40,494 nucleotides of DNA, taken from a virus. Taxonomy: Duplodnaviria; Caudoviricetes. The DNA is taken from the IMG/VR virus record IMGVR_UViG_3300049924_000315, positions 1-40,494 of that record, one strand, 5' to 3'. Position 1 is the stretch's first letter, and every line of letters starts with the position of its first letter. Positions 3,788 through 15,592 of the stretch are shown in pieces. Position numbers and translations under genes: made by a program. The notes below the pieces were generated by a model that did no database searches, was not told the origin of the DNA, and saw nothing but the letters and a program-made list of their open reading frames with translations.

Positions 3788-4081
3788 TCACGCCGCATCG
3801 CGCACCTCATCCAACGCCCCGGGTTGGGTGACGGTTTCGGGCACCTCGGGCGCGCCATCGACGCCGATCAGCTCGGGCCAGATGCGGTGCCAGTCGTTTG
3901 GGAACAGATCCCAACGCCGGTACTGCGTCTTGGCCTCAATGGGCACCACCAACAGCACCAGCTTGTCTCGCGGTATGCGGTGGCCCCGCCACTCGTGCAC
4001 CGAAGGCGGTTTCACGCCCGTCAGCCGTGCCACCGAGGTGGTGCCCCCCAACGCGTCGATGAGTTCCGAAGCTAAGTCCAT
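3788..4081 (-). CDS. Cro/YdaS-like HTH transcriptional regulator
   Basis: LIDALGGTTSVARLTGVKPPSVHEWR HTH and DLFPNDWHRIWPEL C-terminal motif; first gene after the PR-like promoter. Confidence 0.85.
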   Translation of the reverse strand: MDLASELIDALGGTTSVARLTGVKPPSVHEWRGHRIPRDKLVLLVVPIEAKTQYRRWDLFPNDWHRIWPELIGVDGAPEVPETVTQPGALDEVRDAA

Positions 4082-4087
4082 AACCGG

Positions 4088-4116
4088 ATGTTAGGGATGC
4101 CTTTTTGTTTTGTCAA
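4088..4116 (-). promoter_or_regulatory. PR-like sigma70 promoter
   Basis: Minus strand reads TTGACA-17 bp-TAACAT; the -10 box ends 6 bp before the cro ATG. Confidence 0.8.
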
Positions 4117-4196
4117 GGGATGCCTAAACGGGTAAGAAAACACAGATCACAAAATACTTAGGATTCCCTATTGACAATCGCAGCAAGGATCGCCTA
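4092..4196. promoter_or_regulatory. Four operator palindromes WAGG-N4-CCTW
   Basis: TAGGGATGCCTT 4092-4103, AAGGGATGCCTA 4115-4126, TAGGATTCCCTA 4159-4170 and AAGGATCGCCTA 4185-4196, overlapping or abutting both promoters. Confidence 0.8.
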
Positions 4197-4200
4197 AGAT
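4171..4200 (+). promoter_or_regulatory. PL-like sigma70 promoter for the early accessory operon
   Basis: TTGACA-18 bp-TAAGAT upstream of a long run of plus-strand genes. Confidence 0.8.
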
Positions 4201-4237
4201 TATTTCATTGCATCCCCCGGATGCGCACGGAGCGAAG

Positions 4238-4636
4238 ATGCAACCCACCGCACCCAGTTTCCCCGCCGGCCCCGCGCCGATCGACAGCGAATTCGCGCTT
4301 GCCGCGTCCGCCGCGCGCAGCAGCCTCTACTGGCGCGGGCTGGCCCGCAGCATTCGCGCCGGCATGACGGTGTACAACACCACCGCCCGGCGCTGCGACG
4401 ACATCGCCCGCAGCCATGAACGCGAGGTAACGCTCGCCGCGCGGCGCGCTGAACTCTCGGGCGCCGATGCGCTCGACGTCCAGACGTCCGAAACCGCGCC
4501 GCACTTCACCCCGCCCGGCGCCTACCCGTTCGCCAGCACCGCCGCGCAGGCCAGCGCCCGCGCCGCGATGGAACACGCCGCGCGGCACGGCCGCCTGGCC
4601 GCCCTGCCCGCGTGCTTTGCCGCAGGTGCCGCATGA
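4238..4636 (+). CDS. Hypothetical early protein
   Basis: GGAG RBS before ATG 4238; stop overlaps the next ATG (ATGA). Confidence 0.6.
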   Translation: MQPTAPSFPAGPAPIDSEFALAASAARSSLYWRGLARSIRAGMTVYNTTARRCDDIARSHEREVTLAARRAELSGADALDVQTSETAPHFTPPGAYPFASTAAQASARAAMEHAARHGRLAALPACFAAGAA

Positions 4637-5004
4637 GCGCCAGCTACAGCACCGACACCGCCCGCACCGCCGTGTGGGTGTCGCCCAAGCCGCCTTTGCC
4701 CGCGCCGCCCAAGGCCGACAACCGCCGCGCCCGCCGCCCGGGCCGGCCGCGCAAGCTGCCCATGGTGGCCATGCGCGTCGTCGGCATGCGCGGCGAGCAC
4801 TACTCACCGTGGCAGGGCATCTACAGCAGCGCCACCACCGACCTGGGGCAACTGGGCGAAGCGCTCTGGTACCGCATGCGCGACACCACGCGCTGGAGCC
4901 ACGCCGCTTGCTGGCGCGTCACCACCGACGTGTGCGGCCAGCACATCCACCTGTACGCCGTCGTCGACGACTTCGGCACCCTCATCGCCGTTTCAGGAGC
5001 CTGA
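4633..5004 (+). CDS. Hypothetical early protein
   Basis: Translationally coupled ORF with GC3-rich codons. Confidence 0.65.
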   Translation: MSASYSTDTARTAVWVSPKPPLPAPPKADNRRARRPGRPRKLPMVAMRVVGMRGEHYSPWQGIYSSATTDLGQLGEALWYRMRDTTRWSHAACWRVTTDVCGQHIHLYAVVDDFGTLIAVSGA

Positions 5005-5007
5005 GCC

Positions 5008-5283
5008 ATGCGCAATAACCCCGCAACGCTTTACCCCGTCACCAGCCTGATCGCCCAGCGCATCAGCGACTCGTTGATGATCCCGCCACTGCACGCCGCC
5101 ATTGCCGGCCTTGAGGTGACCGAATTGGCGCCCGAAGACGGGGCGATGCAGTGGCACCTGTGCATCCAGTTGCGCGAAGCCGGCTTCGGCGAAACCAGCC
5201 CGGCCGAATTGACGGATGCCGACGACCCCTTCACCGTCACCGCCCCCGCGCCGCTGCTTGACCTGGCGATGCGGGGCATCTGA
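5008..5283 (+). CDS. Hypothetical early protein
   Basis: AGGAG RBS; 91 aa; tightly packed in the operon. Confidence 0.65.
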   Translation: MRNNPATLYPVTSLIAQRISDSLMIPPLHAAIAGLEVTELAPEDGAMQWHLCIQLREAGFGETSPAELTDADDPFTVTAPAPLLDLAMRGI

Positions 5284-5285
5284 GC

Positions 5286-5885
5286 ATGGCCCGCATGAAC
5301 GGCCACGGCTTTCCGCCGCTCACCGGCAAAGCCACCAGCGACACCAGCGCCAGCGCCGACGGGTGTGGCACGAGCAGCAGCACGGTCAGCAGCCCAGGCA
5401 GCACCGTGCACTACCTGCGCCGCGCCCGGCCAGCCCCCGTGCAGTTCCCAGCCCTGCCCCCAGGCTGGCCCGACGCACCTGCCTACATGGCCGACCAGGC
5501 GGCCGAGGAAGCTGCAGAGCGCGCCGCAAACCTCGCCATCGATGGACTGGTCGCACGCGCCCAGCACATCAACGGCCTGGCCCAGCAGGCAGAGCAAGAC
5601 GATCACGACGCCTGCCTGCGCCGCACCCGCGAGGTGTACACCCGCGCCGCCGAAGACGCCGCCGCCGCTCAGGCCGTCGCCTCGCGCTGCCCACCGTGCA
5701 GCGGCGACTGTCGCCAGGGCCGCGAATGCCCGGTCACCTGGGCCGCGCGCCGCCGCGCGTGGCTCGCTGCCGGCGAACCCATCGAGCGCCGCCACCCGTG
5801 GCTGTGGCTCGTCTACGTCGCCGTCGCCGTCGCGCTCGGCGCGATCGCAATCAGCCTGCGCTGGCCGCTGGGGTGGGCGTCATGA
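5286..5885 (+). CDS. Hypothetical protein with a Cys motif and C-terminal TM helix
   Basis: CPPCSGDCRQGRECP motif; hydrophobic WLWLVYVAVAVALGAIAISL segment. Confidence 0.65.
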   Translation: MARMNGHGFPPLTGKATSDTSASADGCGTSSSTVSSPGSTVHYLRRARPAPVQFPALPPGWPDAPAYMADQAAEEAAERAANLAIDGLVARAQHINGLAQQAEQDDHDACLRRTREVYTRAAEDAAAAQAVASRCPPCSGDCRQGRECPVTWAARRRAWLAAGEPIERRHPWLWLVYVAVAVALGAIAISLRWPLGWAS

Positions 5886-6016
5886 TCATCGCCTGGCGCC
5901 TCTACCGCTTCCACCGCCGCAGCGGCATGCCGGCCGCCGCCGCCATGCGCCGCGCCGCCACCACTGTGTGGCGCGACTTCCGCCGCGCGCCCTACCACTG
6001 GACGCCTCTGGCATGA
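5882..6016 (+). CDS. Small basic hypothetical protein
   Basis: 44 aa (MIIAWRLYRFHRRSGM...) coupled by ATGA overlap. Confidence 0.5.
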   Translation: MIIAWRLYRFHRRSGMPAAAAMRRAATTVWRDFRRAPYHWTPLA

Positions 6017-6040
6017 CGGGCGCAGCATGACTGGCACACC

Positions 6041-6439
6041 ATGAGCGCCGTGCGCATCAGCGGCCCGCTCGCCCGCGACGCCGTATGCCGCAAGAGCGCC
6101 GCCGACCGGCCCGAGAACGTGCTGTCGTGGCTGTGCGTCGAAGTGGCGCAGCCCGATGACGGCCTGCATTGCCACGCCGCGTGGCTGCTCGGCGCCGGCC
6201 CAGCCGCTGCGATTGCTGGCGACGTCAATGCCCGGCAACTGCGCCGCGGCGCGCGCGTCGTGGTGCACGCCGCCGGCTGGCACATCAGCTATACGCCCAG
6301 CCCGCACCTGGTGCTGCGCGAAGTCGACTTCATCGAGCACCCGGCGGCGCCGGCCTACCACGAGCCGCGCGCGCCGCAGCACCACGCCCCGCACGGGCCC
6401 GCCGCCGTTTTCCCCAACCCTATGGAGCCCAGGCCATGA
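6041..6439 (+). CDS. Possible divergent OB-fold ssDNA-binding-like protein
   Basis: VRISGPLARDAVCR...QLRRGARVVV echoes SSB motifs (V-x-L-x-G-x-L-x-x-D and L-x-K-G-x-x-V-x-V); weak similarity. Confidence 0.4.
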   Translation: MSAVRISGPLARDAVCRKSAADRPENVLSWLCVEVAQPDDGLHCHAAWLLGAGPAAAIAGDVNARQLRRGARVVVHAAGWHISYTPSPHLVLREVDFIEHPAAPAYHEPRAPQHHAPHGPAAVFPNPMEPRP

Positions 6440-6798
6440 ACCTCACCCATGACACCAGCCCCGCACCCACGCAGCCGCCCGCCATCACACCCCACATGGC
6501 CATGCGCCAGGGCTGCGACGCCGAACTCGCCGCCATCAGCCAGCGCATCGCCGACGAGCAGGTGATCGCCGAAATAGAGAGCGTGTGCCCGGCCTACATC
6601 CAGGGCGGCGACAAGTGGCTCGACACCCGCTTCATGACCGACCCGCGCGAACACAGCGGCGAAGTCATCGACATGAACACCGAAGTACTGGGCTACGCCG
6701 CACAGCGCGGCATCACCGCCGCCCACCCGTTGCAGCCCTATCTCGTGCGCATCTGCGTGCAAATGCGGCCAAAACGGCGCAACCAGCCCACGGTTTAA
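6436..6798 (+). CDS. Hypothetical protein
   Basis: GGAG RBS, ATGA coupling, 120 aa. Confidence 0.65.
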   Translation: MNLTHDTSPAPTQPPAITPHMAMRQGCDAELAAISQRIADEQVIAEIESVCPAYIQGGDKWLDTRFMTDPREHSGEVIDMNTEVLGYAAQRGITAAHPLQPYLVRICVQMRPKRRNQPTV

Positions 6799-6829
6799 CC
6801 AGCACCCACGTGCACCACCTCGCCACCCC

Positions 6830-7273
6830 ATGACCCGCAAGCGCTGCCACCGTCAACCCATCGCGCCCCGGTTGCCCCCAGGCCTGCGCCCAGGGCTGCG
6901 GCCCGACCAGGTGCGCGACCTGGCGCTCGTGCACGTCATCAACCTCGACATGATCGCCAAGGGCGAGGCCACCGAAAGCACCCTGTGGCAATGGGTGGGC
7001 GGCGTGCTCACCTGGAGCCGCGTGGCCGGGATGATGCACCTGGGCGAGGCAGAAATGGCACAACAGCTCGAGCTGTGCGGGCTGGTGCTTGAGCGCTACA
7101 ACAAGTCGGGCCGCGTTGGCTTCAGCGGCCCGGAATACCAACTCGCCAAGATCGGCGTCGCCGTCATGGACCAACTGGCCGAAACGGTCGACCGCGACAC
7201 CGCGCTCGCCGCAGCCGACTGGTCCGAACGCCGCGTCAACGCCCGCAGCCTGCCGGAGCGCGCCCATGCGTAG
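6830..7273 (+). CDS. Phage hypothetical protein
   Basis: 147 aa with a basic N-terminus and helical body; GC3-rich codons. Confidence 0.7.
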   Translation: MTRKRCHRQPIAPRLPPGLRPGLRPDQVRDLALVHVINLDMIAKGEATESTLWQWVGGVLTWSRVAGMMHLGEAEMAQQLELCGLVLERYNKSGRVGFSGPEYQLAKIGVAVMDQLAETVDRDTALAAADWSERRVNARSLPERAHA

Positions 7274-7511
7274 CGCCGTGATCCAACGCGCCGCGCTGGT
7301 CATCCTGTGCTGCGCCATCGCCGCATGCGGAGGCGGCAGCATCGACCCCTGCGCACGCTTACACGCCCGCGAGCAGATTCCCGAACAGCACTGCCCCGCG
7401 CCCACCGACCCTAGCGCGACAGCCGCCACGCACACAGCCGCGCCCAACACAGCGCACACGACAGCGCAAACGACAGCAAACCTGACCGAAACCGAAAGAC
7501 CCAACCCATGA
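7266..7511 (+). CDS. Putative lipoprotein
   Basis: Signal MRSAVIQRAALVILCCAIAA-C-GGGS with lipobox IAAC; Thr/Ala-rich tail. Confidence 0.6.
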   Translation: MRSAVIQRAALVILCCAIAACGGGSIDPCARLHAREQIPEQHCPAPTDPSATAATHTAAPNTAHTTAQTTANLTETERPNP

Positions 7512-7939
7512 TGGACATTGCAGATGAACTAGACCGCATTGGCAAGAGTGCGCCAACGGAAGTTTGGGACGACGTTCCGCCAAGTGACGCCACTCCTAAG
7601 AGTTTGTGGGCTGAGGTGCGACGGCTGCGCGCCGCCGTGGCCGCTGTTGGGGCTCGGCTCGAACTGGGGGTTGGGCGGCTGGACCCGGAGCGTGCCAGTG
7701 CGCGCGGGCTGACAGAGTGCCACGGCAATCCCCAGTGCGCGCGGTGCCGGCGCATGGCCGACATGGATGCACTTTGCGCACTGCTGCCGGAGGGCGTGCA
7801 CTGGGGCGACCCGCTGACACCGGAACTGCTGCGCGAACTGCTGGCAGGCACTGCGGCGAAGCTGCTGCCGCCACAGATACCGAACGAGTTTGGGCACTTG
7901 CTGACGCCAGGTGCGCTCTGGAAGATGTACGTTGAATGA
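7508..7939 (+). CDS. Hypothetical protein, apparent fusion reading through a half attC site
   Basis: 143 aa; the segment AVGARLELGVGRL is encoded by attC-derived DNA at ~7645-7680. Confidence 0.55.
   Translation: MMDIADELDRIGKSAPTEVWDDVPPSDATPKSLWAEVRRLRAAVAAVGARLELGVGRLDPERASARGLTECHGNPQCARCRRMADMDALCALLPEGVHWGDPLTPELLRELLAGTAAKLLPPQIPNEFGHLLTPGALWKMYVE
7640..7676 (-). other. Half attC site (R''-L'' arm only)
   Basis: Minus strand GCCCAAC-CCCCA-GTTCGAGC. Plus GTTGGGCGGCT (7670-7680) is the exact reverse complement of AGCCGCCCAAC (7952-7962). Confidence 0.6.
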
Positions 7940-7955
7940 TGTCCCGCCACGAGCC

Positions 7956-8058
7956 GCCCAACGCCAGGGTAACCGGACCCCAGCAGGCCGCGTAGGATTA
8001 GCCGAAGCGAGCCAAACTAGCCGACCTGTTGTGGGTCCGGTTGACCCGACAGTTGTGC
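7956..8058 (-). other. attC site (103 bp)
   Basis: Minus strand GCACAAC-TGTCG-GGTCAACC...GGTTACC-CTGGC-GTTGGGC, with one extra base in L''. Confidence 0.85.
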
Positions 8059-8082
8059 GGCACGGCAACGAAAGGAATGCAG

Positions 8083-8199
8083 ATGGCAACTTTGATTCAG
8101 CGACTGACGATCATGAACGACCAAGACGGCGCCAAGCACGCCGCTGAGAAGCATGCGCGGAATTTGCTGGCGGTTGTTTCGCCACCATGGGCGCGGTGA
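8083..8199 (+). CDS. 38 aa cassette ORF (not in the supplied track)
   Basis: AAGGA RBS; MATLIQRLTIMNDQDGAKHAAEKHARNLLAVVSPPWAR fills the space between two attC sites. Confidence 0.5.
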   Translation: MATLIQRLTIMNDQDGAKHAAEKHARNLLAVVSPPWAR

Positions 8200-8200
8200 G

Positions 8201-8259
8201 GCACAACTCCACTGTTCAGCCGCCCGCCGCTGGATGTCCACTTGACCGCCCAGTTGGGC
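8201..8259 (-). other. Hybrid or degenerate attC site (59 bp)
   Basis: R'' GCCCAAC and R' GTTGTGC are present, but L'' GGTCAAGT and L' GGCTGAAC do not pair well. Confidence 0.6.
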
Positions 8260-8277
8260 CTGTAGCCGGAGCGTGAC

Positions 8278-8559
8278 ATGCAAGTTGAAACAGACTGGAT
8301 TCCAATGGACCAGCAGCCTGCCTATGTTGGATGGTACGAAGTACTACACCATGCAGGTGGCGTGATGCAGCGCTATTGGCGCGGCCCTTTGTGGTGGGGA
8401 ATGTGCTCCGAGGAGTTTGAAATCGACACCAGGCTTGCCGTTGACCCCGGCACGCATTGGCGCGGTCTGAGCGCGCCAACCGAAGGTGTGCGGTACGAAC
8501 CTATTGCAAGTCAACAGATGCACGCTGTTTCTCGGCGGATTCTGTTTACTGGCAAGTGA
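8278..8559 (+). CDS. Cassette hypothetical protein, phage-type
   Basis: TDWIPMDQQPAYVGWYEV...WRGL resembles small Trp-rich phage early proteins; GGAG RBS. Confidence 0.7.
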   Translation: MQVETDWIPMDQQPAYVGWYEVLHHAGGVMQRYWRGPLWWGMCSEEFEIDTRLAVDPGTHWRGLSAPTEGVRYEPIASQQMHAVSRRILFTGK

Positions 8560-8560
8560 G

Positions 8561-8630
8561 GCCCAACGTTTGAGTTAAGGCGCGACCGGAGGCGGAGCCG
8601 TAGGGCGTCTCCTTGAACGAATGGTTAGGA
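8561..8630 (-). other. attC site (70 bp)
   Basis: Minus strand TCCTAAC-CATTC-GTTCAAGG...CCTTAAC-TCAAAC-GTTGGGC; canonical layout. Confidence 0.9.
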
Positions 8631-8637
8631 GGCTTCT

Positions 8638-9012
8638 ATGCAGACGAAAGAAGTGTTGATGTTCGGACAGCCGGTAGTGCTGGTGTGCGACGCGAACTGC
8701 GCGAAGGCTTGGGGGGTGAATGGCCGCCCAAAGCAACAGTTTGGCGAAGACCCTGACGACTACGCATTCTTGGCCGATGACGAACTCGGCGAGGCGCCCT
8801 ACCAGCCCGGGACATACGAAGGCGGCTTCACCAAGCCAAAGACGCCGGACCAGATGAACCGCTGGTGCAGCCGAGAGTGTGAACGCTGCGACGTGGTGAG
8901 GCCATGGGAAGAACCAAAGGCCCGCAGCTTTGCGGTGCGGCTGTTCAATCAACCGTGGAAGCACGAGCCTTCTAACGTCGCCGATGAACGACAGGCACCG
9001 GTACTCCGGTGA
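8638..9012 (+). CDS. Cassette hypothetical protein, Cys-rich (possible metal binding)
   Basis: CDANC...WCSRECERC; RBS AGGAGG overlaps the attC end. Confidence 0.75.
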   Translation: MQTKEVLMFGQPVVLVCDANCAKAWGVNGRPKQQFGEDPDDYAFLADDELGEAPYQPGTYEGGFTKPKTPDQMNRWCSRECERCDVVRPWEEPKARSFAVRLFNQPWKHEPSNVADERQAPVLR

Positions 9013-9022
9013 CTGTCCGCCG
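8970..9022 (-). other. Partial attC site (L'-R' arm only)
   Basis: Minus strand ...CTGTCGTTCATCGGCGAC-GTTAGAA. AGCCTTCTAAC (8966-8976) complements GTTAGGAGGCT (8624-8634) with one mismatch. Confidence 0.55.
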
Positions 9023-9066
9023 CGAAGATTGCTCGAAGGCGGGCGAGGGTGGCGAAAAAGACTGCG

Positions 9067-9170
9067 CTCTAACGTTCGAGCTAACCGGCCCAGCGGGGCC
9101 GAGAAGGACTGTGATGAAAGCTGACCAAGTAGCCGGCCCCGATGGGTCCGCGTTGAGCGAGGGGTTAGGC
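9067..9170 (-). other. attC site (104 bp)
   Basis: Minus strand GCCTAAC-CCCTC-GCTCAAC...GGTTAGC-TCGAAC-GTTAGAG. Confidence 0.88.
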
Positions 9171-9515
9171 CCCAACGCGGAGGACGACGAGTGCAGCGCA
9201 CCGCCGCGCGTGACCGACCCGCCCGCCGACCTGTGGCTGGTGTACGGCGAGCTTGAGCATGACGACACGCACTGGAACTGCTGCCGCGATGGCGAGGTGT
9301 CTTGGTGCGAGGACAAGCAGTACGACAGCGACGTGCATTACGTGCGCGGCGACAGGTACGACGACGTGCACACCGCGTTGACTGAGCTGCGCGACCGAAT
9401 CAAGGCGCACCCGGCCTACGCGAACCTCACGGAAGACGAGGAAATCGACTGCGGCGGAGACACGGCAGAGTTTTCCTATCTGGCCCGCGTGGCAGATGCC
9501 GCCCTTGGGGCCTAA
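9114..9515 (+). CDS. Cassette hypothetical protein (acidic), starting inside an attC loop
   Basis: AAGGA RBS and ATG 9114 lie within the attC; the TAA stop is part of the next GCCTAAC box. Confidence 0.75.
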   Translation: MKADQVAGPDGSALSEGLGPNAEDDECSAPPRVTDPPADLWLVYGELEHDDTHWNCCRDGEVSWCEDKQYDSDVHYVRGDRYDDVHTALTELRDRIKAHPAYANLTEDEEIDCGGDTAEFSYLARVADAALGA

Positions 9516-9567
9516 CGGTTGAATTCAGGCGCACCCGAAGGGTGTCGCCTGGAATGAAGGGTTATGC
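9510..9567 (-). other. attC site (58 bp)
   Basis: Minus strand GCATAACCCTTCATTCCAGGCGACACCCTTCGGGTGCGCCTGAATTCAACCGTTAGGC. Confidence 0.92.
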
Positions 9568-9591
9568 GTCTGGGGTCGAACGGAGTAGAAG

Positions 9592-9795
9592 ATGGAACTT
9601 GAACGAATGTGCAAACTCATTGCTGCGGTGTGCAGCGCCCTACTCGCACTCTCGTGTTCGAACCCCGAACGCGACGAGATGCGTGAACTGCTCAAGGATG
9701 GCCAAGCGCTGGTCCTGACCGATGCCGACGGGAATCGGTACGTGGTGAAGCACCACTTCGCCAACTCGTACACCATTGCCCCGGTGAAGAAATGA
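9592..9795 (+). CDS. Cassette protein, possible lipoprotein
   Basis: KLIAAVCSALLALS-C signal-like segment; GGAG RBS. Confidence 0.6.
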   Translation: MELERMCKLIAAVCSALLALSCSNPERDEMRELLKDGQALVLTDADGNRYVVKHHFANSYTIAPVKK

Positions 9796-9799
9796 AGAC

Positions 9800-9859
9800 G
9801 CATAACGTTGCCGGTAACCGGCTTGTTCGGCGGCCGGTTCCGAAGCGTGACTTTGTGGC
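9800..9859 (-). other. attC site with degenerate R''
   Basis: Minus strand ...GGAACCGGC...GCCGGTTACC-GGCAAC-GTTATGC; R'' is eroded. Confidence 0.65.
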
Positions 9860-9872
9860 GCACAAAAACCGC

Positions 9873-9901
9873 TTGCGCGCCGCCTATTGATGGCGTACAT
9901 T
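9873..9901 (+). promoter_or_regulatory. Cassette-internal sigma70-like promoter
   Basis: TTGCGC-17 bp-TACATT, with inverted repeat CGCC-N7-GGCG in the spacer. Confidence 0.5.
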
Positions 9902-9947
9902 ATTGGACATGGGCAGCGAACCGCAGCCCGCAACCGGAGCAAAGACC

Positions 9948-10166
9948 ATGACCACCGCCACCAACACCGCCGCCAGCCAATGGACCGAGATCGGCCACTA
10001 CTACGAGCCGATTGCCTACTACGGCGGCCGGGTGCTGAAGTACGCCGGGATTACCTGCCCGATGAACGAGGCGCACATGATGGCCAAGCCCGGCATGTTG
10101 ATGCTCGACGCCTACAAGGGCGACCGCATCACCGCCTACAAGCACGAACTGTTTACCGCACTGTGA
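9948..10166 (+). CDS. Cassette hypothetical protein
   Basis: GGAG RBS; 72 aa (MTTATNTAASQW...). Confidence 0.7.
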   Translation: MTTATNTAASQWTEIGHYYEPIAYYGGRVLKYAGITCPMNEAHMMAKPGMLMLDAYKGDRITAYKHELFTAL

Positions 10167-10336
10167 GCAAGACGCCCGAGCCGAAAAAGCCCGGGCGGCC
10201 TGCGCTGCCGCCCGATCTGCGCCGCACCGCACGCCTGAGCATGCGAACCTATCAAGACGTGGCGGACAAGGCTGCCCGCGTTGGCACGGAGGCCTTAGAA
10301 GCCGCCATCCGGCGCATCGAGGAACCGGCGAAGTGA
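10163..10336 (+). CDS. Small DNA-binding protein, RHH-like
   Basis: GTG start overlaps the upstream TGA; KKPGRPALPPDLRRTARLSMRT followed by helices. Confidence 0.65.
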   Translation: MSKTPEPKKPGRPALPPDLRRTARLSMRTYQDVADKAARVGTEALEAAIRRIEEPAK

Positions 10337-10343
10337 GCAAGAC

Positions 10344-10399
10344 GCCTAACGTTTGAATTCAGCCGCGCCGAAGGCGTCGGCTGGAATGAAGGGTTAGGG
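10344..10399 (-). other. attC site (56 bp)
   Basis: Minus strand CCCTAACCCTTCATTCCAGCCGACGCCTTCGGCGCGGCTGAATTCAAACGTTAGGC. Confidence 0.92.
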
Positions 10400-10415
10400 C
10401 TGGTTGGGAGACAAG

Positions 10416-10559
10416 ATGAGCGACGAGCAGAAAGCGGTGATGGTTGCCACGGTGCTGGAATACTGCCGCACCCACGGCGTTGACTTGAAGGAAGCGCTAC
10501 ATCTGCTGCGCCCTGAGGTGATTCGGTGGTGGTATGCGCAAAAGAAGGATGACAAATGA
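10416..10559 (+). CDS. 47 aa cassette ORF (not in the supplied track)
   Basis: GGGAG RBS; MSDEQKAVMVATVLEYCRTHGVDLKEALHLLRPEVIRWWYAQKKDDK. Confidence 0.6.
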   Translation: MSDEQKAVMVATVLEYCRTHGVDLKEALHLLRPEVIRWWYAQKKDDK

Positions 10560-10654
10560 ATCTGCTTTGGTTTTTGCTTGGCATTGGTCTATGTGTCGTT
10601 GCCATTTTGGTTTGGGTGGCAGCGATTTGCGACCCAGGAGATACTCGTCTATGA
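10556..10654 (+). CDS. 32 aa single-TM peptide (not in the supplied track)
   Basis: MNLLWFLLGIGLCVVAILVWVAAICDPGDTRL; ATGA overlaps at both ends. Confidence 0.6.
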   Translation: MNLLWFLLGIGLCVVAILVWVAAICDPGDTRL

Positions 10655-10938
10655 CGACCCAGAGTGTCGATCGACAGTTTGCGCAGCGGCGCATCGGCGA
10701 GGTTGAATTGGAGAAAGCTCGCACGCTACTCAAGCGAGCGAGTGCTCAGTTATTGGCGTGGAATGAGCTGTACGGACGCGTGAGTACGACCGTACTTCCG
10801 CCCGCTGGCGACGTGCGGCTCGCGGAAGACATCGACGAGTTCTTGCGCCCTAACGTTCGAGCTAACCGGCGGCACGTCCGGTTGAGCGACCGTTATGGCG
10901 CTCTTTGCCTGCGCGGTTGCCCACCGAAAGAATGTTGA
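10651..10938 (+). CDS. Cassette hypothetical protein reading through attC
   Basis: AGGAG RBS and ATG 10651; C-terminal PNVRANR... is attC-encoded. Confidence 0.65.
   Translation: MTTQSVDRQFAQRRIGEVELEKARTLLKRASAQLLAWNELYGRVSTTVLPPAGDVRLAEDIDEFLRPNVRANRRHVRLSDRYGALCLRGCPPKEC
10848..10898 (-). other. attC site (51 bp, short)
   Basis: Minus strand CCATAAC-GGTC-GCTCAACCGG...CCGGTTAGC-TCGAAC-GTTAGGG. Confidence 0.82.
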
Positions 10939-10948
10939 AAAATACCGC

Positions 10949-10976
10949 TTGCGTTTCCGGAAACGTGAACTAGAAT
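10949..10976 (+). promoter_or_regulatory. Cassette-internal promoter with palindromic operator
   Basis: TTGCGT-16 bp-TAGAAT; perfect palindrome CGTTTCCGGAAACG at 10952-10965. Confidence 0.65.
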
Positions 10977-11008
10977 AAACACATCGACAACGCAAACGGA
11001 CTTACCAA

Positions 11009-11215
11009 ATGAACTCCTCATGCCAAGCCACCCCCAGCGATGTTTACGAGTGCATGCTTCAAATCAAGAGCGGCAAGCGCGGTTGCATGACGCTCACCAA
11101 GAAAGAAGCAAAGGCCGCAAATCTGGACTGGTCGTTTGTGGAGAACGCGGCGTCGATCCTGGGCCTAAAGGTGCAAAAAAACGGCCGGTGGGGTTTCTTG
11201 GTGAGCCGCAAATGA
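11009..11215 (+). CDS. Cassette hypothetical protein
   Basis: 68 aa downstream of its own promoter; coupled to the next gene by ATGA. Confidence 0.65.
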   Translation: MNSSCQATPSDVYECMLQIKSGKRGCMTLTKKEAKAANLDWSFVENAASILGLKVQKNGRWGFLVSRK

Positions 11216-11409
11216 GCGAGGCCCGAAAGGGCCTTGCGCCCAAGACCGCAAGCGAGCGCGTCGAAAAGCTCCGCAACGAGCGCGAGGCGCTTGGGCTCAA
11301 ACGACGCGAACTTTATGTGCATGACGACGAATGGCCCAAGTTGCAGGAACTCGCAGCCAAGATCAACCGTCGCCGTGCACGCCTGGTGGCGAAGCGAGAT
11401 GCGCCATAA
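11212..11409 (+). CDS. Small basic DNA-binding protein, RHH-like
   Basis: KTASERVEKLRNEREALGLKRRELYVHDDEW pattern; the TAA stop lies within the attC box CCATAAC. Confidence 0.65.
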   Translation: MSEARKGLAPKTASERVEKLRNEREALGLKRRELYVHDDEWPKLQELAAKINRRRARLVAKRDAP

Positions 11410-11459
11410 CGTTGGAATTGAGCGGCTGCGAAGCAGTCCGCTCGAATGACTGGTTCGGC
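11404..11459 (-). other. attC site (56 bp)
   Basis: Minus strand GCCGAACCAGTCATTCGAGCGGACTGCTTCGCAGCCGCTCAATTCCAACGTTATGG. Confidence 0.88.
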
Positions 11460-11477
11460 GTCTGGTGGAGGAACAAG

Positions 11478-11870
11478 ATGATTGTGCAACCGAAGCTACC
11501 GCGCGTGACGTTCTACCCAGCGCCGCCCGGCGAGCCCTACCGGCCGTGCAATGGCTCGGAGGGCGAATACTTCCACGCTATGTGGTGCGAGGAATGCGAA
11601 CGCGACAAGGTGATGAACGGCGACGCCACGGTAGAGGACGCTGACAAAGACCCGGACCTGTACTGCGAGATTCTGAACCGCTCATTCCGCGACGACGAGC
11701 CGCTGCCCGAGTGGACGCGCGGTGACGATGGGCAACCGACGTGCACGCAGTTCGTGGCGAAGGGGCATCCGCTGCCGCAACGATGCGAGCACACGGCCGA
11801 TCTGTTTGATGAGAGCAAGACGCCGAACGTTCGAGCTAACCGCGCCAATGACGGCGCCACAGGAGCATGA
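11478..11870 (+). CDS. Cassette hypothetical protein, Cys-rich phage-type
   Basis: GGAGG RBS; YRPCNGSEGEYFHAMWCEECERD...CEIL...CTQF; ends inside the next attC. Confidence 0.75.
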   Translation: MIVQPKLPRVTFYPAPPGEPYRPCNGSEGEYFHAMWCEECERDKVMNGDATVEDADKDPDLYCEILNRSFRDDEPLPEWTRGDDGQPTCTQFVAKGHPLPQRCEHTADLFDESKTPNVRANRANDGATGA

Positions 11871-11923
11871 AGATGGAACAAAGCAACCCGCCGGCATTGG
11901 TCCGGTTGAGCGAGGGGTTAGGC
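11822..11923 (-). other. attC site (102 bp)
   Basis: Minus strand GCCTAAC-CCCTC-GCTCAACC...CGGTTAGC-TCGAAC-GTTCGGC. Confidence 0.88.
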
Positions 11924-12139
11924 GCGTGGTCGCCAATCGAGACGGCCCCCGACATGCCGGCCTTCAGCGCGATTGTTGCCTCTCCGATGGCGGATGGCGG
12001 CTACTTCGTCGAAGAGGCGTGGTGGGACTACGAGCGCCGCGAGTGGTGGCCGGCGAATGTGGACTGGACCGACGCGCACGGCGAGCAGCTTTATCCGACG
12101 CACTGGATGAACCTGCCAGCCCCGCCTGAAAGCGCCTAA
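11867..12139 (+). CDS. DUF551-like phage protein in the first cassette
   Basis: WSPIETAP...PTHWMNLPAPP signature; AGGAG RBS and start codon inside the attC loop. Confidence 0.8.
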   Translation: MKMEQSNPPALVRLSEGLGAWSPIETAPDMPAFSAIVASPMADGGYFVEEAWWDYERREWWPANVDWTDAHGEQLYPTHWMNLPAPPESA

Positions 12140-12152
12140 CGTAGAGTAGACC
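12134..12152 (-). other. attI-like site heading the array
   Basis: Minus strand GGTCTAC-TCTAC-GTTAGGC: L box, 5 bp spacer, R box, with no matching attC arm upstream. Same pattern as 36937-36955. Confidence 0.6.
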
Positions 12153-12252
12153 AACCGCTCAGACCGGATCGCGTTGGCCTAAACAGGTGACGTACCGAGG
12201 TTTTTATGCAATGGGCGGACTAAATTTCGGCGGTCGGTAACCATCATGCTCA

Positions 12253-12552
12253 CCCCTGCCGATCGGTTTCGATGGCGTCAAGAGCGGATTCCGGCGGGCC
12301 CGCGAAGCCGCAGGCATGCCTGATGTGCACTTTCACGACCTGCGCCACAGCTGCGCCACCATCCTGCTCGGCCTGCGCGTGCCGCTGTACGTGGTGCGCG
12401 AGATCCTCGGGCACACCAGCATCAAGACGACCGAGCGCTATGCGCACGTGATGGTCGGGCCCCGGCGCGAGGCATTGCAGAAGCTGGGCCGTTTACACCG
12501 CGATTTACACCAGCCGCCGAAGCGGCCCCGAAGGGCCGCTGTGAGTCGTTGA
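12253..12552 (+). pseudogene. 5'-truncated phage tyrosine integrase (C-terminal catalytic fragment)
   Basis: FHDLRHS...ILGHTSIKTTERYAH motifs; in-frame TAA at 12238-12240 upstream; only ~100 codons remain and the first catalytic Arg box is missing. Confidence 0.85.
12521..12540 (-). terminator. Hairpin downstream of the tRNA 3' fragment
   Basis: 8 bp perfect stem AGCGGCCC/GGGCCGCT with a TTCG loop on the minus strand; no clear U tract. Confidence 0.4.
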
Positions 12553-12558
12553 TTTTGC

Positions 12559-12603
12559 TGGTGGGCGATGCAGGGTTCGAACCTGCGACCCCTGCCGTGT
12601 GAA
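12559..12603 (-). other. attP core: 3' half of tRNA-Val(CAC)
   Basis: Minus strand TTCACACGGCAGGGGTCGCAGGTTCGAACCCTGCATCGCCCACCA contains the anticodon loop, T arm and CCA; the 5' half is absent. Confidence 0.88.
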
Positions 12604-12688
12604 CGCAAGTGGCAGACACCCGACCCCAGTGTGAGACGCAGGCAGACCACCCCCAAAGGGGGCATTGTCTGACCGGAATTTACACCGG

Positions 12689-13147
12689 CTACACCCCCAG
12701 CAGCGCCACCTCAGCCGCCCGCCGCAACACCAGCCCCGGCAGCACCCGCCCACCGCCGCGCACCCATTTGCCCAGCTCGACGGCCGCGCCATCCCAGTCC
12801 TGCGCCAGAACTCGCTTGCGCAGCGTGCTGGCCTTCAGGCGCCCGAGGCCGAGGTTGAATGCAAAGTCCGCCAGCGCCGCTTGGCGCCCCGGTGTGTCTG
12901 CAGTCGGGCACAGCCGCATCGCGCCGGGCAGGTAAACGCCGGTGATCTGCCGTTCGAGCAGCCGCTCGGCCACCTCATGGTTGATGGGCGCATCGCCGGG
13001 ATGCACGGCGCGGCCGTCCAGGTAGGTGGTGGCGCCGTAGCCGATCGTCCACACATTGGCGGGGCACAGGTAGGGCCGACTGCGGAAACCTTCGAAGCGC
13101 TTGCACAGATCCTCGACGATCCACAGTGCGGGCGGCCCTGCGCTCAC
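12689..13147 (-). CDS. Endolysin, GH24 lysozyme
   Basis: FEGFRSRPYLCPANVWTIGYG, ALADFAFNLG and LPGLVLRRAAE motifs. Confidence 0.93.
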   Translation of the reverse strand: MSAGPPALWIVEDLCKRFEGFRSRPYLCPANVWTIGYGATTYLDGRAVHPGDAPINHEVAERLLERQITGVYLPGAMRLCPTADTPGRQAALADFAFNLGLGRLKASTLRKRVLAQDWDGAAVELGKWVRGGGRVLPGLVLRRAAEVALLGV

Positions 13148-13623
13148 ACCTTGCCGCCCTTGCGCAAGCTGCGGTCAACAAACCAGAACGCCAGAATACT
13201 GCCGATCACGGTGCGGTCGAATTCGCTCACCAGCAGCGGCGCGATTGCCTCGAGCGTGGCGCCGGCCTGCAGCGCAACGATGATACCGATCACCTTCGCG
13301 CCGCTGTACAGGCCGATCACCCACCAGTAGGTGAGCACCGGCCGCACGCTGCTGCTCAACGCATCGGCCCACTTGTTGCCGGTGGGCGTGGCCTGCGCGC
13401 GAATCGCATCGCCCCACGCCTGCATTTCGCCCGCACTCGCCGCCACTTCGGCCTGGCCGTGCACCAGGTCGAGCGCCTGGGTGGCGCGGGCCTGGTCGAT
13501 CTTGAGCTGCAGTTCGCTCATGCGGTATTCGTGGTCCGCGTCGCGTTTGGCCGTGAAAATCTTGAACACCTCGGGCAGCAGGCGGAACAGCCCGCCACCG
13601 AGCAAACCCAGCAGTTCGATCAT
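13144..13623 (-). CDS. Putative holin-like membrane protein
   Basis: SVRPVLTYWW and FWFVDRSLRK resemble the 3TM holin family; adjacent to the endolysin. Confidence 0.6.
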   Translation of the reverse strand: MIELLGLLGGGLFRLLPEVFKIFTAKRDADHEYRMSELQLKIDQARATQALDLVHGQAEVAASAGEMQAWGDAIRAQATPTGNKWADALSSSVRPVLTYWWVIGLYSGAKVIGIIVALQAGATLEAIAPLLVSEFDRTVIGSILAFWFVDRSLRKGGKV

Positions 13624-14373: not shown

Positions 14374-14664
14374 TCAATGCGGCGGCAGTTTCCCGCCCGT
14401 GATGAACTGATGCCAGGCGGCAGCCATGGCGCTGCCCGCCAATGCCACCGCGCCGACCCATTTCACGGCGCGCGTGAACACGCGCCCGGCGGTCACGACG
14501 TCTCGAATCTCACGCGTGACGGCGGTGTTTTCGGTCAGCAGGGTTTCCATGCCCGCCATGCGCTGCTCGATGTCGCCCACGCGCCGCTCGGTGCCGCCCA
14601 GGCGCTGGCGGATGCCGTCCAGCGCGCCTGGAATCGTTTCTTCCTCGTTCGGTTCATGCCTCAT
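14374..14664 (-). CDS. Coiled-coil protein with C-terminal TM, lysis-associated
   Basis: Heptad-like region followed by WVGAVALAGSAMAAAW. Confidence 0.65.
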   Translation of the reverse strand: MRHEPNEEETIPGALDGIRQRLGGTERRVGDIEQRMAGMETLLTENTAVTREIRDVVTAGRVFTRAVKWVGAVALAGSAMAAAWHQFITGGKLPPH

Positions 14665-14837
14665 TGCCGCCCCTTGTCTTGCTCGCGCTCAGCCCCGCCG
14701 CGCTCGTTCGGCGCGGTACTCGGGAAATCAGTGTCGAATCTCGGCAGCGGCTGGTCACGCACCATCACCCAGCGGCGCCACACCAACAGCACCAGCAGCG
14801 CCAGCCAAGCCAGTGCGCCGAAGCACAGCCAGCTCAT
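14661..14837 (-). CDS. Small membrane protein
   Basis: MSWLCFGALAWLALLVLLVWRR; ATGA overlaps at both ends. Confidence 0.55.
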   Translation of the reverse strand: MSWLCFGALAWLALLVLLVWRRWVMVRDQPLPRFDTDFPSTAPNERGGAEREQDKGRQ

Positions 14838-15157
14838 GGCGCTGCCCACCGCAACAGCATGCGCAGCAGCCACACCGGTGCGCAGAACATCAACCCACCG
14901 ATGACTGTGGCTGCCGCGTCGGCGAACTCCACGCGCTCGGTGGGGCTCAGGCCCGCGGCCTCAGCGCGCGAGATTCGCGCTGCGTCGTAGGCCTCTTTGA
15001 GCATACCCACGCACAGCGCGCCCACCAGCGCAGCAGCCATCAATTGCGCGGGTTCCCGCAAGCCCCACCACCAGGCAGCCAGGCACGCGAACGCAGCGGC
15101 TGCGTAGCCGTACAGCAGGTGGCTGGCCTTGTCGGCCGGAATTTGCGGCAATGCCAT
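14834..15157 (-). CDS. Membrane protein with a DKxxH motif
   Basis: IPADKASHLLYG...KEAYD...DAAATVIGG; three hydrophobic segments. Confidence 0.65.
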   Translation of the reverse strand: MALPQIPADKASHLLYGYAAAAFACLAAWWWGLREPAQLMAAALVGALCVGMLKEAYDAARISRAEAAGLSPTERVEFADAAATVIGGLMFCAPVWLLRMLLRWAAP

Positions 15158-15163
15158 GATGCG

Positions 15164-15592
15164 TTACCCCTGCTGCCGCAGCAGCCACAGCAGCACCCGA
15201 TCGGCGCGCAGCGCGCGGCGTTTCATATCCTGAATTTGCACAAACGCCTGCGCCGCAGTGGTGGGCGCCGCGGTGATGCCGTCGGCAATGTCCACCTGCA
15301 GCACGCTAATGGCCTGTTTGAGCAGCGCCAGCTCGTCGGCTTGCGCGGTCGCATCGATCTCTGCCTGCGTCTTGGCGCGCAGCGCCCAAGTGCGGCGCAC
15401 TTGGGTCGGTTCGATTACATAGCCGCCATCGCTCACCACCTCGGTGGCTGATGGCACCGGCGGCCCATCCACCACCAGCGGGCGCAGAAACTGCCGCTTC
15501 GGGTTGCCGGCCAGCGCGTCGAATTGCGCCTGCGTAATTTCCACCAGAGCAATGGCGCTGGTCTGCGGGTCGATGCGTGCAAACGTGGGCAT
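15164..15592 (-). CDS. Possible tail fibre assembly or chaperone protein
   Basis: Follows the fibre genes; VRRTWALRAKTQAEID motif. Confidence 0.5.
   Translation of the reverse strand: MPTFARIDPQTSAIALVEITQAQFDALAGNPKRQFLRPLVVDGPPVPSATEVVSDGGYVIEPTQVRRTWALRAKTQAEIDATAQADELALLKQAISVLQVDIADGITAAPTTAAQAFVQIQDMKRRALRADRVLLWLLRQQG

Follow-up and report, generated by a model that had tools for sequence, protein, structure and literature searches.

Can a temperate phage carry an integron-type cassette array of its own, and which enzyme would then recombine it? The question is raised by a viral sequence of 40,494 nucleotides (the window, that is, the whole stretch analysed), in which about 12 small early genes lie in one row as attC-bounded units within a lambda-like phage. 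A preliminary description had read this row as the phage's own integron-type array. The array is indeed the phage's own; the enzyme is not, intI being absent.

The phage and its distal early operon

The phage was assigned to the lambda-like temperate phages by its lambda-type head and tail genes, O/DnaB replication, divergent early promoters, int and attP, with the caveats that int is deleted and that cI is absent between the divergent early promoters. The record is 88% complete and has a putative origin in the O-like gene, with repeats at 2577-2638. We infer that the array genes are likely driven by the promoter at the pL position (Table 1). GC content and skew of the array are unlike those of the upstream operon.

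A search with the left flank gene retrieved six relatives, with attC present there in two and absent in four. In one relative (L198), xis-int directly follows the flank gene, representing an empty allele; in another (L195), a different array follows it, at the same slot as in the window. Assembled contigs bridge the 7500 and 12250 regions, thus excluding the assembly chimera that had been named as a danger: the likely source run and a second study both supplied contigs across 7500 (6747-10377; 6801-8047), and 12029-12438 is covered by one contig from the latter. The xis-int deletion is also spanned by a second-study contig; truncation of the integrase by the array was rejected, the deletion being a separate microhomology event. 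No tRNA gene was found in the window, blastn of the array against GenBank phages returned no similar phage, none of the 17 window ORFs tested matched Pfam, and an Rfam search of the window gave no relevant match.

Table 1. Features of the array and its flanks, in window coordinates
Feature	Position	Strand	Evidence and remarks
Sigma70-like promoter, pL position	4171-4200	+	10/12 consensus match; heads plus-strand early operon
Conserved phage gene, left flank marker	6830-7273	+	
Half attC, R''L'' only	7657-7676	-	Half-site score 17.1; ORF 7508-7939 reads through; 11-nt terminal repeat shared with 7952-7962
Complete attC	7956-8058	-	Grammar, fold, covariance
ORF, 39 codons, antisense to attC	8080-8199	+	
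Hybrid attC	8201-8259	-	R boxes intact, L halves unpaired; E 0.013
Cargo ORF, 93 aa	8278-8559	+	phrog_26541 (unknown function), E 1e-9
Complete attC by sequence	8561-8630	-	Weak predicted fold; E 8.5e-12
Cargo ORF, 124 aa	8638-9012	+	Homologs are cassettes in 2/7 metagenome loci, attC-free in 5/7
Remnant	8970-9022	-	R' box and unrelated hairpin, without L''/R''
Complete long attC	9067-9170	-	Loop holds ribosome-binding site and ATG (9114) of next gene; sites 85-88% identical in other phages
Cargo ORF, 133 aa	9114-9515	+	Starts inside attC, stops in R' complement; 3' half common to phage L014 as far as the crossover
Complete attC	9510-9567	-	Grammar, fold, covariance
Cargo ORF, 67 aa	9592-9795	+	Lipoprotein-like N-terminus (by eye)
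Degenerate attC	9800-9859	-	L'R' half kept; half-site matrices, covariance
Two-gene module	9867-10336	+	ORF to 10166 and 57-aa basic ORF 10163-10336; promoter-like sequence at ~9867-9895 by eye, not found by promoter scan
Complete attC	10344-10399	-	88% identical to aacA34 cassette attC of class 1 integron
Cassette, 2-3 short ORFs	10416-10854	+	10416-10559; 32-codon ORF from 10556; third ends in R' complement
attC	10848-10898	-	R''-L'' spacer 4 nt; E 2.3e-8
Two-gene cassette	10949-11409	+	ORF 11009-11215 and 65-aa ORF 11212-11409 (member of a viral small-protein family); promoter-like sequence and palindrome by eye
Complete attC	11404-11459	-	Fold, covariance
Cargo ORF, 130 aa	11478-11870	+	Continues into next attC; homolog in phage L402 77% identical, without attC
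Complete long attC	11822-11923	-	Start codon in loop; 98% identical to phage L031 site heading a different gene
Cargo ORF, 90 aa	11867-12139	+	DUF551-like (lead); first cassette beside attI
attI-like simple site, array start	12134-12152	-	Predicted crossover between 12139 and 12140
xis start fused to C-terminal third of lambda-type integrase	12246-12552	+	5-nt microhomology; xis-int deletion
attP-like piece of tRNA gene	12557-12607	-	Common to L198; tRNA-bearing contigs have loose ends here

attC sites and reversed genes

The attC-type repeats of the preliminary description were recovered where it had placed them, reading on the minus strand R'', a 5-nt spacer, L'' with an extra base, a hairpin, L', a spacer and GTT R'. 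The sites have R''/R' with conserved AAC/GTT, L''/L', an unpaired central spacer and a variable terminal hairpin; the extra L'' base is present in all eight strong sites, and two single extrahelical bulges appear in the predicted folds of 9510 and 10344. The covariance-model check on both strands that had been proposed, run with a model built solely from 24 attC sites found in bacterial genomes and on plasmids, yielded eight strong matches (10344, 8561, 9510, 11403, 11822, 9066, 10848 and 7956; E 3e-13 to 1.3e-4) and two weak ones (8201, E 0.013; 9800, E 0.79) within 7956-11923; the 40.5 kb window has no other match with E<=1, and all 10 are minus-strand matches within the array. With filters off, a single weak plus-strand match was obtained (12149-12179, E 0.26). 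A strict attC grammar found four minus-strand matches in 7500-12300, against a mean of 0.09 and a maximum of 2 in 300 dinucleotide shuffles. The plus (bottom) strand fold beat shuffles at 7/8 strong sites (z -2.1 to -5.3), the exception being 8561 (z -0.2).

The earlier list of about 12 repeats was right in its positions, and 7640-7676 is the half site it was said to be, R''L''. Several elements had been placed in the wrong class: 8201-8259 and 9800-9859, listed as complete, retain intact R boxes and an L'R' half, respectively, the former being a hybrid and the latter otherwise degenerate, whereas 8970-9022, called a half attC, gave nothing with half-site matrices. The spacer of about 5 bp holds generally, except at 10848. 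The attC reading itself stands, although the antisense genes and a 13th element, the distal attI-like site, had been missed. Five of the 13 elements are broken, the four attC sites nearest attI are near-complete, and 7657-7676 is probably the far, oldest end of the array. As an attC cluster lacking a neighbouring intI, the array is a CALIN.

All nine cassettes detected in the window are antisense to the attC top strand. Among 228 viral cassettes, sampled by means of three attC patterns plus a matrix that had been trained on sites from viruses, 180 were antisense, one sense, 44 without ORF and three unclear, as compared with 11, 328, 80 and 17 of 436 bacterial cassettes; both cassettes of an annotated class 1 integron, used as control to exclude an error in strand assignment, were sense. 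These calls include a coding-score cut-off, added because most of the bacterial antisense calls obtained otherwise (68/461) were non-coding. Pfam confirms real antisense-strand genes in 19 of the 60 longest viral cassettes tested, 14 of the 19 being DNA-modifying enzymes. The inverted layout is therefore a class that extends beyond a single phage to dozens of other viral contigs. Exceptions occur on both sides: the array of phage TJE1 is canonical and bears cargo of phage type, and next to bacterial intI three of 26 cassette calls came out antisense.

The R'' box of each site fits the start of its own cassette better than the adjoining R' in 7/7 cases in the window; by hand, own fit equalled or exceeded array fit in 9/9, with two ties, and 10 cassettes have terminal repeats of 5-12 nt. 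Own fit was better in 183 of 217 viral cases (11 worse, 23 ties) and in 358 of 459 from bacterial arrays. Cassette ends complementary to their own starts are the mark of G/TT insertion.

Probable cassette exchange and its candidate enzymes

The site at 12134-12152 is attI-like by resemblance and by its position at the array head. On a matrix of 19 bacterial attI sites, a few attC-like entries included, it reaches the 98th percentile of control GTT sites, and it matches the chromosomal attI of a bacterial locus (L299) at 16/17 positions. On the same matrix, 33 phage array starts outscored 790 control sites (p 1e-11), with only 42% of them above the 95th control percentile. A consensus scan of the minus strand near 12150-12700, which is weak evidence, gave no promoter match that could represent a Pc beside attI.

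No intI occurs in the 88% complete record of this phage, whose sole integrase match is a 56-residue lambda-type fragment (34.9 bits against a cut-off of 265), and no intI remnant was found in 12140-12246. The adjacent integrase was rejected as the cassette enzyme, being lambda-type, deleted and without an IntI score. Many arrays may be dormant, because intI is absent both from this phage and from 12/13 near-complete records examined. Of 49 further array-bearing viral records, four (L225, L249, L254, L260) encode IntI above the TIGR02249 cut-off, with intI beside attI. In all, a true IntI adjoins attI in seven related phages, and the seven proteins, which retain the IntI insertion, form their own clade (SH-aLRT 98-99) in trees from quick searches with a bacterial sample limited to the host order. 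Other IntI-like matches (L318, L324, L326-L328, L330) had no array detectable by attC matrices.

The comparison of cassette content and order in relatives, which had been suggested as a check, supports at the sequence level that modules are exchanged at G/TT. Both neighbours differ in 12/15 homologous cassette pairs, identity between shared cassettes steps up at G/TT, and six contigs with one shared attI-intI have four different first genes, the break falling at AAC. One cassette is identical, attC included, in two phages (L022 and L023), and one is duplicated in L195. The alternative of top-strand units, in which a gene would move with the attC on its other side, found no support, that attC being unlike in 12/12 reshuffled pairs. 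Site decay rises away from attI (rho -0.22, a trend that contig-end cuts may inflate). No excision or circle joint was found in contigs from three runs, although assembled contigs drop rare forms.

The attached gene differs in 34/35 near-identical long attC pairs, and diverged copies of one gene mostly carry unlike attC; simple G/TT shuffling does not explain these two observations. A ribosome-binding site and ATG occur in the loop of 86/179 long viral attC as against 23/486 bacterial ones, and 61/180 viral cassette genes start inside attC. Homologs of two cargo genes are ordinary genes elsewhere, without attC. Together with the attC-loop start codons, this hints at how cassettes originate.

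We consider it highly probable that the region is an integron-type platform, with an attI-like site and about 12 reversed-gene cassettes, whose insertion and excision at G/TT are likely due to an external IntI; recombination activity in this phage we infer from its sequence. Insertion by IntI would bring in circular cassettes at attI, immediately upstream of xis-int; the most recent arrival would then have the greatest distance to the early promoter, toward which earlier cassettes would be pushed as they decay. Since the genes are reversed, they would be read within the phage early operon, often starting at the ribosome-binding site and ATG of an attC loop. The relatives that carry intI have it as the last gene of this operon, and the origin of the inverted geometry would be explained by that position. 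If replication starts in the O-like gene, the bottom strand, which recombines, would serve as lagging-strand template, an orientation described as excision-prone in the available part of Loot 2017 (PMC5371416). Cassettes probably arise when ordinary phage genes are joined to stock attC. The enzyme serving this phage is most likely a host chromosomal IntI, because the attI core of the window is of the chromosomal type.

The same mechanism could instead depend on a phage-clade IntI, from a co-infecting or resident phage or since lost by the lineage. In two phages (L249, L316) intI sits between array and phage integrase, in a slot that is empty in the window, and in L316 a gene homologous to that at 8638 has its end at the attI; the window attI core, however, is nearer to the chromosomal attI than to those of the seven intI phages, no intI trace is left downstream of the array, and intI is far commoner in hosts (84/201 genomes of the likely host order), which makes this enzyme source rather unlikely. 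More clearly disfavoured is a role of attC copies mainly as conserved linkers, at which recombinases of phage or host would act through homology or microhomology, IntI having only seeded the copies. The hybrid site with its unpaired halves, the reuse of one attC for different genes, partial cassette sharing with L195 and L014 and the lack of intI in most array phages would fit such linkers, which do not account for own-core complementarity (183:11), the identity step at G/TT, first-cassette exchange at a non-repeated attI or intact IntI beside attI in relatives; linker recombination probably plays only a secondary part.

Less probable again is a frozen relic, a block that came from a host integron in a single capture, has since filled up or been decaying, and no longer recombines. 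The resemblance of attC and attI to host integron sites, the compositional difference from the upstream operon, the xis-int deletion and the several broken sites agree with it. Against it stand the phage-type, antisense cargo, unlike host cassettes, the different arrays at the same slot in relatives and the near-complete sites next to attI; moreover, no cargo was shared between phage and host arrays in the sample, viral cassette proteins matching no host ones save those of a prophage-like locus (L036). Dormancy of this one genome is possible. That the hairpins were kept as RNA signals (processing, translation starts, weak terminators), with recombination incidental, is very improbable: the frequent loop start signals and gene starts inside attC speak for it, while asymmetric extrahelical bases, own-core complementarity, attI and IntI would be left unexplained. 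An RNA-level function is best seen as an added role of the integron-type platform.

Beyond this genome, we tentatively propose, at somewhat less than even confidence, that phages of Betaproteobacteria run their own gene-capture system, with a phage IntI clade, attI at the end of the early operon, and reversed cassettes made de novo from stock attC, donating the translation start, and ordinary phage genes or gene pieces. The reversal would separate phage and host pools, and phages lacking IntI, this one among them, would be served in trans. If so, host cassettes, including defence genes, would be silent on arrival in the phage, as would phage cassettes in a host integron.

Relation to phage mosaicism and to known integrons

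Lambdoid phages have mosaic early regions that are exchanged at boundary sequences, and as in the window, swappable small genes lie in their distal early operon upstream of xis-int. The boundaries here differ: each is a structured site for site-specific recombination, and the array has a polarity and a point of insertion. Phage mosaicism would gain in this way a site-specific mechanism, allowing fast exchange of genes that counter defence, DNA methyltransferases among them. The way in which cassettes first come into being has long been an open question. It is raised also in the available part of PMC8946536, and the arrays offer matched pairs for its study on a small replicon: one gene that occurs with attC and also lacks it elsewhere (77% identical), and one attC that accompanies different genes.

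The preliminary description had known of no account of such a diversification system in lambdoid phages; phage attC clusters are in fact in print. Qi, Rajabal, Ghaly, Tetu and Gillings (2023, PMC9892861), in the portion available, list 17 CALINs in 10,705 phage genomes, with 2-4 attC each (Table S1), and demonstrate IntI1 recombination with attI1 for 5/6 tested phage attC. Those CALINs are likewise attC clusters without intI, with DNA methyltransferase cargo, and that of ctTUS972 (MW202573) combines minus-strand attC with plus-strand genes, the same inversion, unremarked in the accessible text, which likewise has no remark on gene inversion in general, attI-like array starts or a phage IntI clade. 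The complete integrons given there are captured ones of Vibrio, Shewanella and class 1. The array of phage TJE1 is canonical, and the available part of PMC13366799 deals with four prophages without integrons. Neither antisense cassette arrays in phages nor an inverted class were described in the literature searched, which lay mostly outside subscription journals.

With Betaproteobacteria sedentary and class 1 integrons the array shares the attC family, the own-core rule, terminal repeats of 7-13 nt, a similar attI core and the reuse of stock attC for many genes. Bacterial integrons have sense genes and Pc beside attI; here the genes are antisense, often start inside attC, are phage cargo and would be expressed from a phage promoter at the array's opposite end. 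The bottom strand is predicted to lie on the lagging template, whereas most sedentary arrays have it on the leading template (PMC5371416, as far as available). In the reverse top-strand insertion of Nivina 2016 (PMC5027507, available part), gene and attC are both reversed relative to attI, and in inverted-integrase integrons (PMC13323075, available part) intI is reversed. Integrons are regarded as devices of bacteria, with cassettes that have to face away from attI. The phage class draws on integron sites and the integron enzyme family, and in it attC, attI and intI keep their normal geometry and the gene alone is reversed.

Structure and probable exchange of the phage cassettes

The array of the window very probably works like an integron cassette array. 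It classes as a CALIN, headed by an attI-like site, and falls short of a complete integron; its cassettes depart from the rule of sense orientation. A strict attC grammar returned four minus-strand sites in 7500-12300, where 0.09 were expected. A covariance model trained on 24 attC sites from bacterial genomes and one plasmid gave eight strong and two weak sites, all on the minus strand and within the array, and no match elsewhere in the window. Both methods thus support the attC-type inverted repeats that a preliminary description had placed in the distal early operon. The site at 10344-10399 shares 88% identity with the attC of the class 1 aacA34 cassette. In total 13 elements were recognized, eight of them complete or nearly so, the five others being listed in the table. 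Both array ends are bridged by contigs from two studies, which removes the earlier doubt about an assembly chimera.

Features of the window, named by start coordinate or range
Feature	Position	Strand	Basis
Hybrid attC	8201
Half sites	9800 and 7657
Remnant	8970
Not an attC	12134
cro-like gene		minus	PHROG match
Divergent promoters	4088-4116 and 4171-4200

For cassettes that integrate as circles, the R'' box is complementary to the core at the start of its own cassette and not to the neighbouring R' in the array. Such pairing was found in all seven automatically scored window cassettes. Among viral cassettes 183 of 217 show it, with 11 reversed and 23 ties, and among bacterial cassettes 358 of 459 do; ten window cassettes have perfect terminal repeats, 5-12 nt long. 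Of 15 pairs of homologous cassettes from viral loci, 12 differ in their neighbours on both flanks, and identity climbs from roughly 0.3 to roughly 0.8 at G/TT. Loci L022 and L023 share one cassette and its attC at 100% identity, and another cassette is present twice within the viral contig L195. Six viral contigs of another attC type have one attI-intI in common; four distinct first genes occur among them, with the switch at AAC. On these comparisons the window units appear to behave as cassettes, and the proposal that modules are exchanged as integron cassettes, at G/TT, is supported.

Comparison with related phages, six of which were retrieved through the conserved flank gene 6830-7273, gave a varied cassette content. 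In L198, an empty allele, the flank gene is followed directly by xis and an intact integrase. The array of L195 is another one, with 11 model matches; L196 has two attC sites, and the model found none in the three others. The L195 array also holds, as separate cassettes, two diverged copies of one large uncharacterised gene family (12500-13350 and 14640-15570), and no integrase lies ahead of its tRNA-like attP.

Homologs of ORF 8638 (8638-9012) occur in seven metagenome loci, as cassettes in two and as plain operon genes in five, and a homolog 77% identical to ORF 11478 (11478-11870) has no attC. Of 35 pairs of long attC sites with 88% identity or more, 34 have unlike genes attached, the sequences diverging at the R'' box. 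These attC-free homologs, and the finding of the same attC on different genes, suggest that stock attC sites have been joined to phage genes time and again, which would take a route beyond what G/TT shuffling alone provides.

The head of the array appears attI-like: ahead of the first cassette core (12134-12140), a short top-strand box matches chromosomal attI (16/17 with the bacterial locus L299). On an attI matrix built from 19 bacterial first-cassette sites, a few of them attC-like, 33 non-redundant phage array starts scored above 790 control GTT sites (mean 2.6 vs -6.3, p 1e-11); 42% of the phage starts exceeded the 95th control percentile, and the window start lay at the 98th. Broken attC sites were commoner far from attI (rho -0.22, 34 arrays; contig ends may contribute), as expected if insertion takes place at attI.

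Orientation of the cassette genes

In the window array, every ORF with a ribosome-binding site and every PHROG match lies on the plus strand, which is the attC bottom strand, and several stop codons fall within or just before the complement of R'. The genes of a class 1 control integron lie on the attC top strand. Non-redundant cassettes with terminal repeats of at least 7 nt were then counted. The viral sample (100 loci from three pattern scans of viral contigs, plus the six flank-gene relatives) gave 228 cassettes, window included, with 180 antisense, one sense, 44 without ORF and three unclear. The bacterial sample (164 stretches covered by one scan of bacterial genomes, the prophage-like L036 excluded from the counts) gave 436, with 11 antisense, 328 sense, 80 without ORF and 17 unclear. 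At least three antisense cassettes are carried by 33 of the 66 viral loci with cassettes, L229 being the single sense locus. Pfam searches with the 60 longest of 110 listed antisense ORFs gave matches for 19, of which 14 are DNA methyltransferases or Mom. Inversion is not universal, since the cultured phage TJE1 (L403, 1-1520) is a counter-example, with a canonical array and phage-type cargo including a methyltransferase, and 3 of 26 calls beside bacterial intI are antisense.

L036, from a Sulfuritalea MAG whose genome also has a chromosomal intI, holds a prophage-like reversed array (3870-7595), one of whose cassette proteins is 95% identical to one in the intI phage L260. At L038-L083 (CAWBFC010000005.1) and at Rubrivivax loci, a chromosomal array extends over more than 130 kb; cassettes of 300 and 386 bp without a clear ORF are repeated in it many times.

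The reversed layout could have arisen by capture of an intI-attI at the end of an early operon; the array would grow back towards the promoter, so that only reversed genes would be read. Gene starts lie inside the attC in 61 of 180 viral cassettes vs 9 of 328 bacterial ones, and long attC loops with a ribosome-binding site and ATG on the bottom strand were found in 86 of 179 viral vs 23 of 486 bacterial cases, sites 9067 and 11822 being window examples of a start codon in the loop. Iteron-like repeats at 2577-2638 may mark a replication origin left of the array, which would make the plus strand the lagging template; a bottom strand so placed is reported to help attC sites fold and to promote excision (PMC5371416). 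Cassettes arriving from a host would come to lie antisense to phage transcription, and chromosomal arrays are reportedly rich in anti-phage genes (10.1101/2024.07.02.601686). Viral and host cassette proteins gave no match in the sample, apart from those of L036.

The phage, its probable host and the possible source of the integrase

The window spans an entire IMG/VR record, which is linear and comes from freshwater sediment runs. It appears to be a lambda-like phage, with PHROG matches to terminase, portal, protease, capsid, tail genes, endolysin, an O-like initiator and DnaB. Its plus-strand operon starts at about 4240; at its end lie a fragment of an integrase and an attP piece that is tRNA-like. 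The capsid belongs to the lambda E family, with Methylibium (81% identical) the sole named relative among the best 120 matches, and a bacterial genome scan found the window's attC family mostly in Betaproteobacteria; the host is therefore likely a member of the Burkholderiales. The divergent early promoters are separated by only about 160 bp (4081-4240), with operator-like repeats and no cI repressor gene. Given this gap and the xis-int deletion, the phage, in a record 88% complete, seems to be a temperate phage turned lytic.

A Neck1/tail-completion family gene (21-677) lies directly after DnaB, apart from the tail genes, and a similar gene is found near primase in L371. At the left edge of the array GC drops from about 0.68-0.74 (4200-7500) to 0.56-0.64 (7500-12200), and coding-strand GC skew switches from negative to positive. 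Cassettes 9867-10336 and 10949-11409 each combine a palindrome and a promoter-like sequence of their own with a small gene and a short, basic, probably DNA-binding ORF; one of these basic ORFs recurs in the array of phage L220.

No intI was found in the window genome (record 88% complete), and the nearby integrase is a lambda-type remnant. By comparison with L198, the start of xis is fused at a 5-nt microhomology (12246-12262) to what remains of int, its last third; this junction is also spanned by a contig of a second study. The integron-integrase cut-off was passed by none of 31 viral records (L013 partial) and by 4 of 49 further ones; among near-complete records 1 of 13 passed. In the intI-bearing viral records, intI begins no more than about 300 nt from attI and has the direction of the reversed genes. 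Next to it in L249 and L316 comes a phage integrase, in the slot that xis-int occupies in the window. Seven phage IntI keep the IntI-specific insertion and cluster together in quick trees (SH-aLRT 99 with 36 bacterial rows, 98 with 29 rows including the nearest matches). One of them has a best match of 59% among 401 genomes of the likely host order. Of 201 genomes of that order, 84 carry intI; GenBank phages gave IntI-like matches in nine records, none above 55%. A helper phage supplying IntI is the rival to the host as source of the enzyme. Because the attI core of the window is of chromosomal type, the host IntI is favoured.

Phages with other IntI lineages (L319-L323, L333, L331-L332) have one attI-intI and varied upstream genes ending at AAC, their attC sites mostly going undetected by the covariance model. 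The low-GC phages L335, L336, L338 and L340 encode a short tyrosine recombinase without the IntI insertion, and an AAC box ends the upstream gene in three.

Relation to known integron systems

The literature search returned no account of the reversed cassette class or of a phage IntI clade. Seventeen phage CALINs were described by Qi et al. 2023 (PMC9892861), with IntI1 active on five of six phage attC sites; one of these phages, MW202573, has the reversed layout, which is not remarked in the available text of that paper. Top-strand reverse insertion, as reported (PMC5027507), is different from the layout of the window, in that it inverts gene and attC together.
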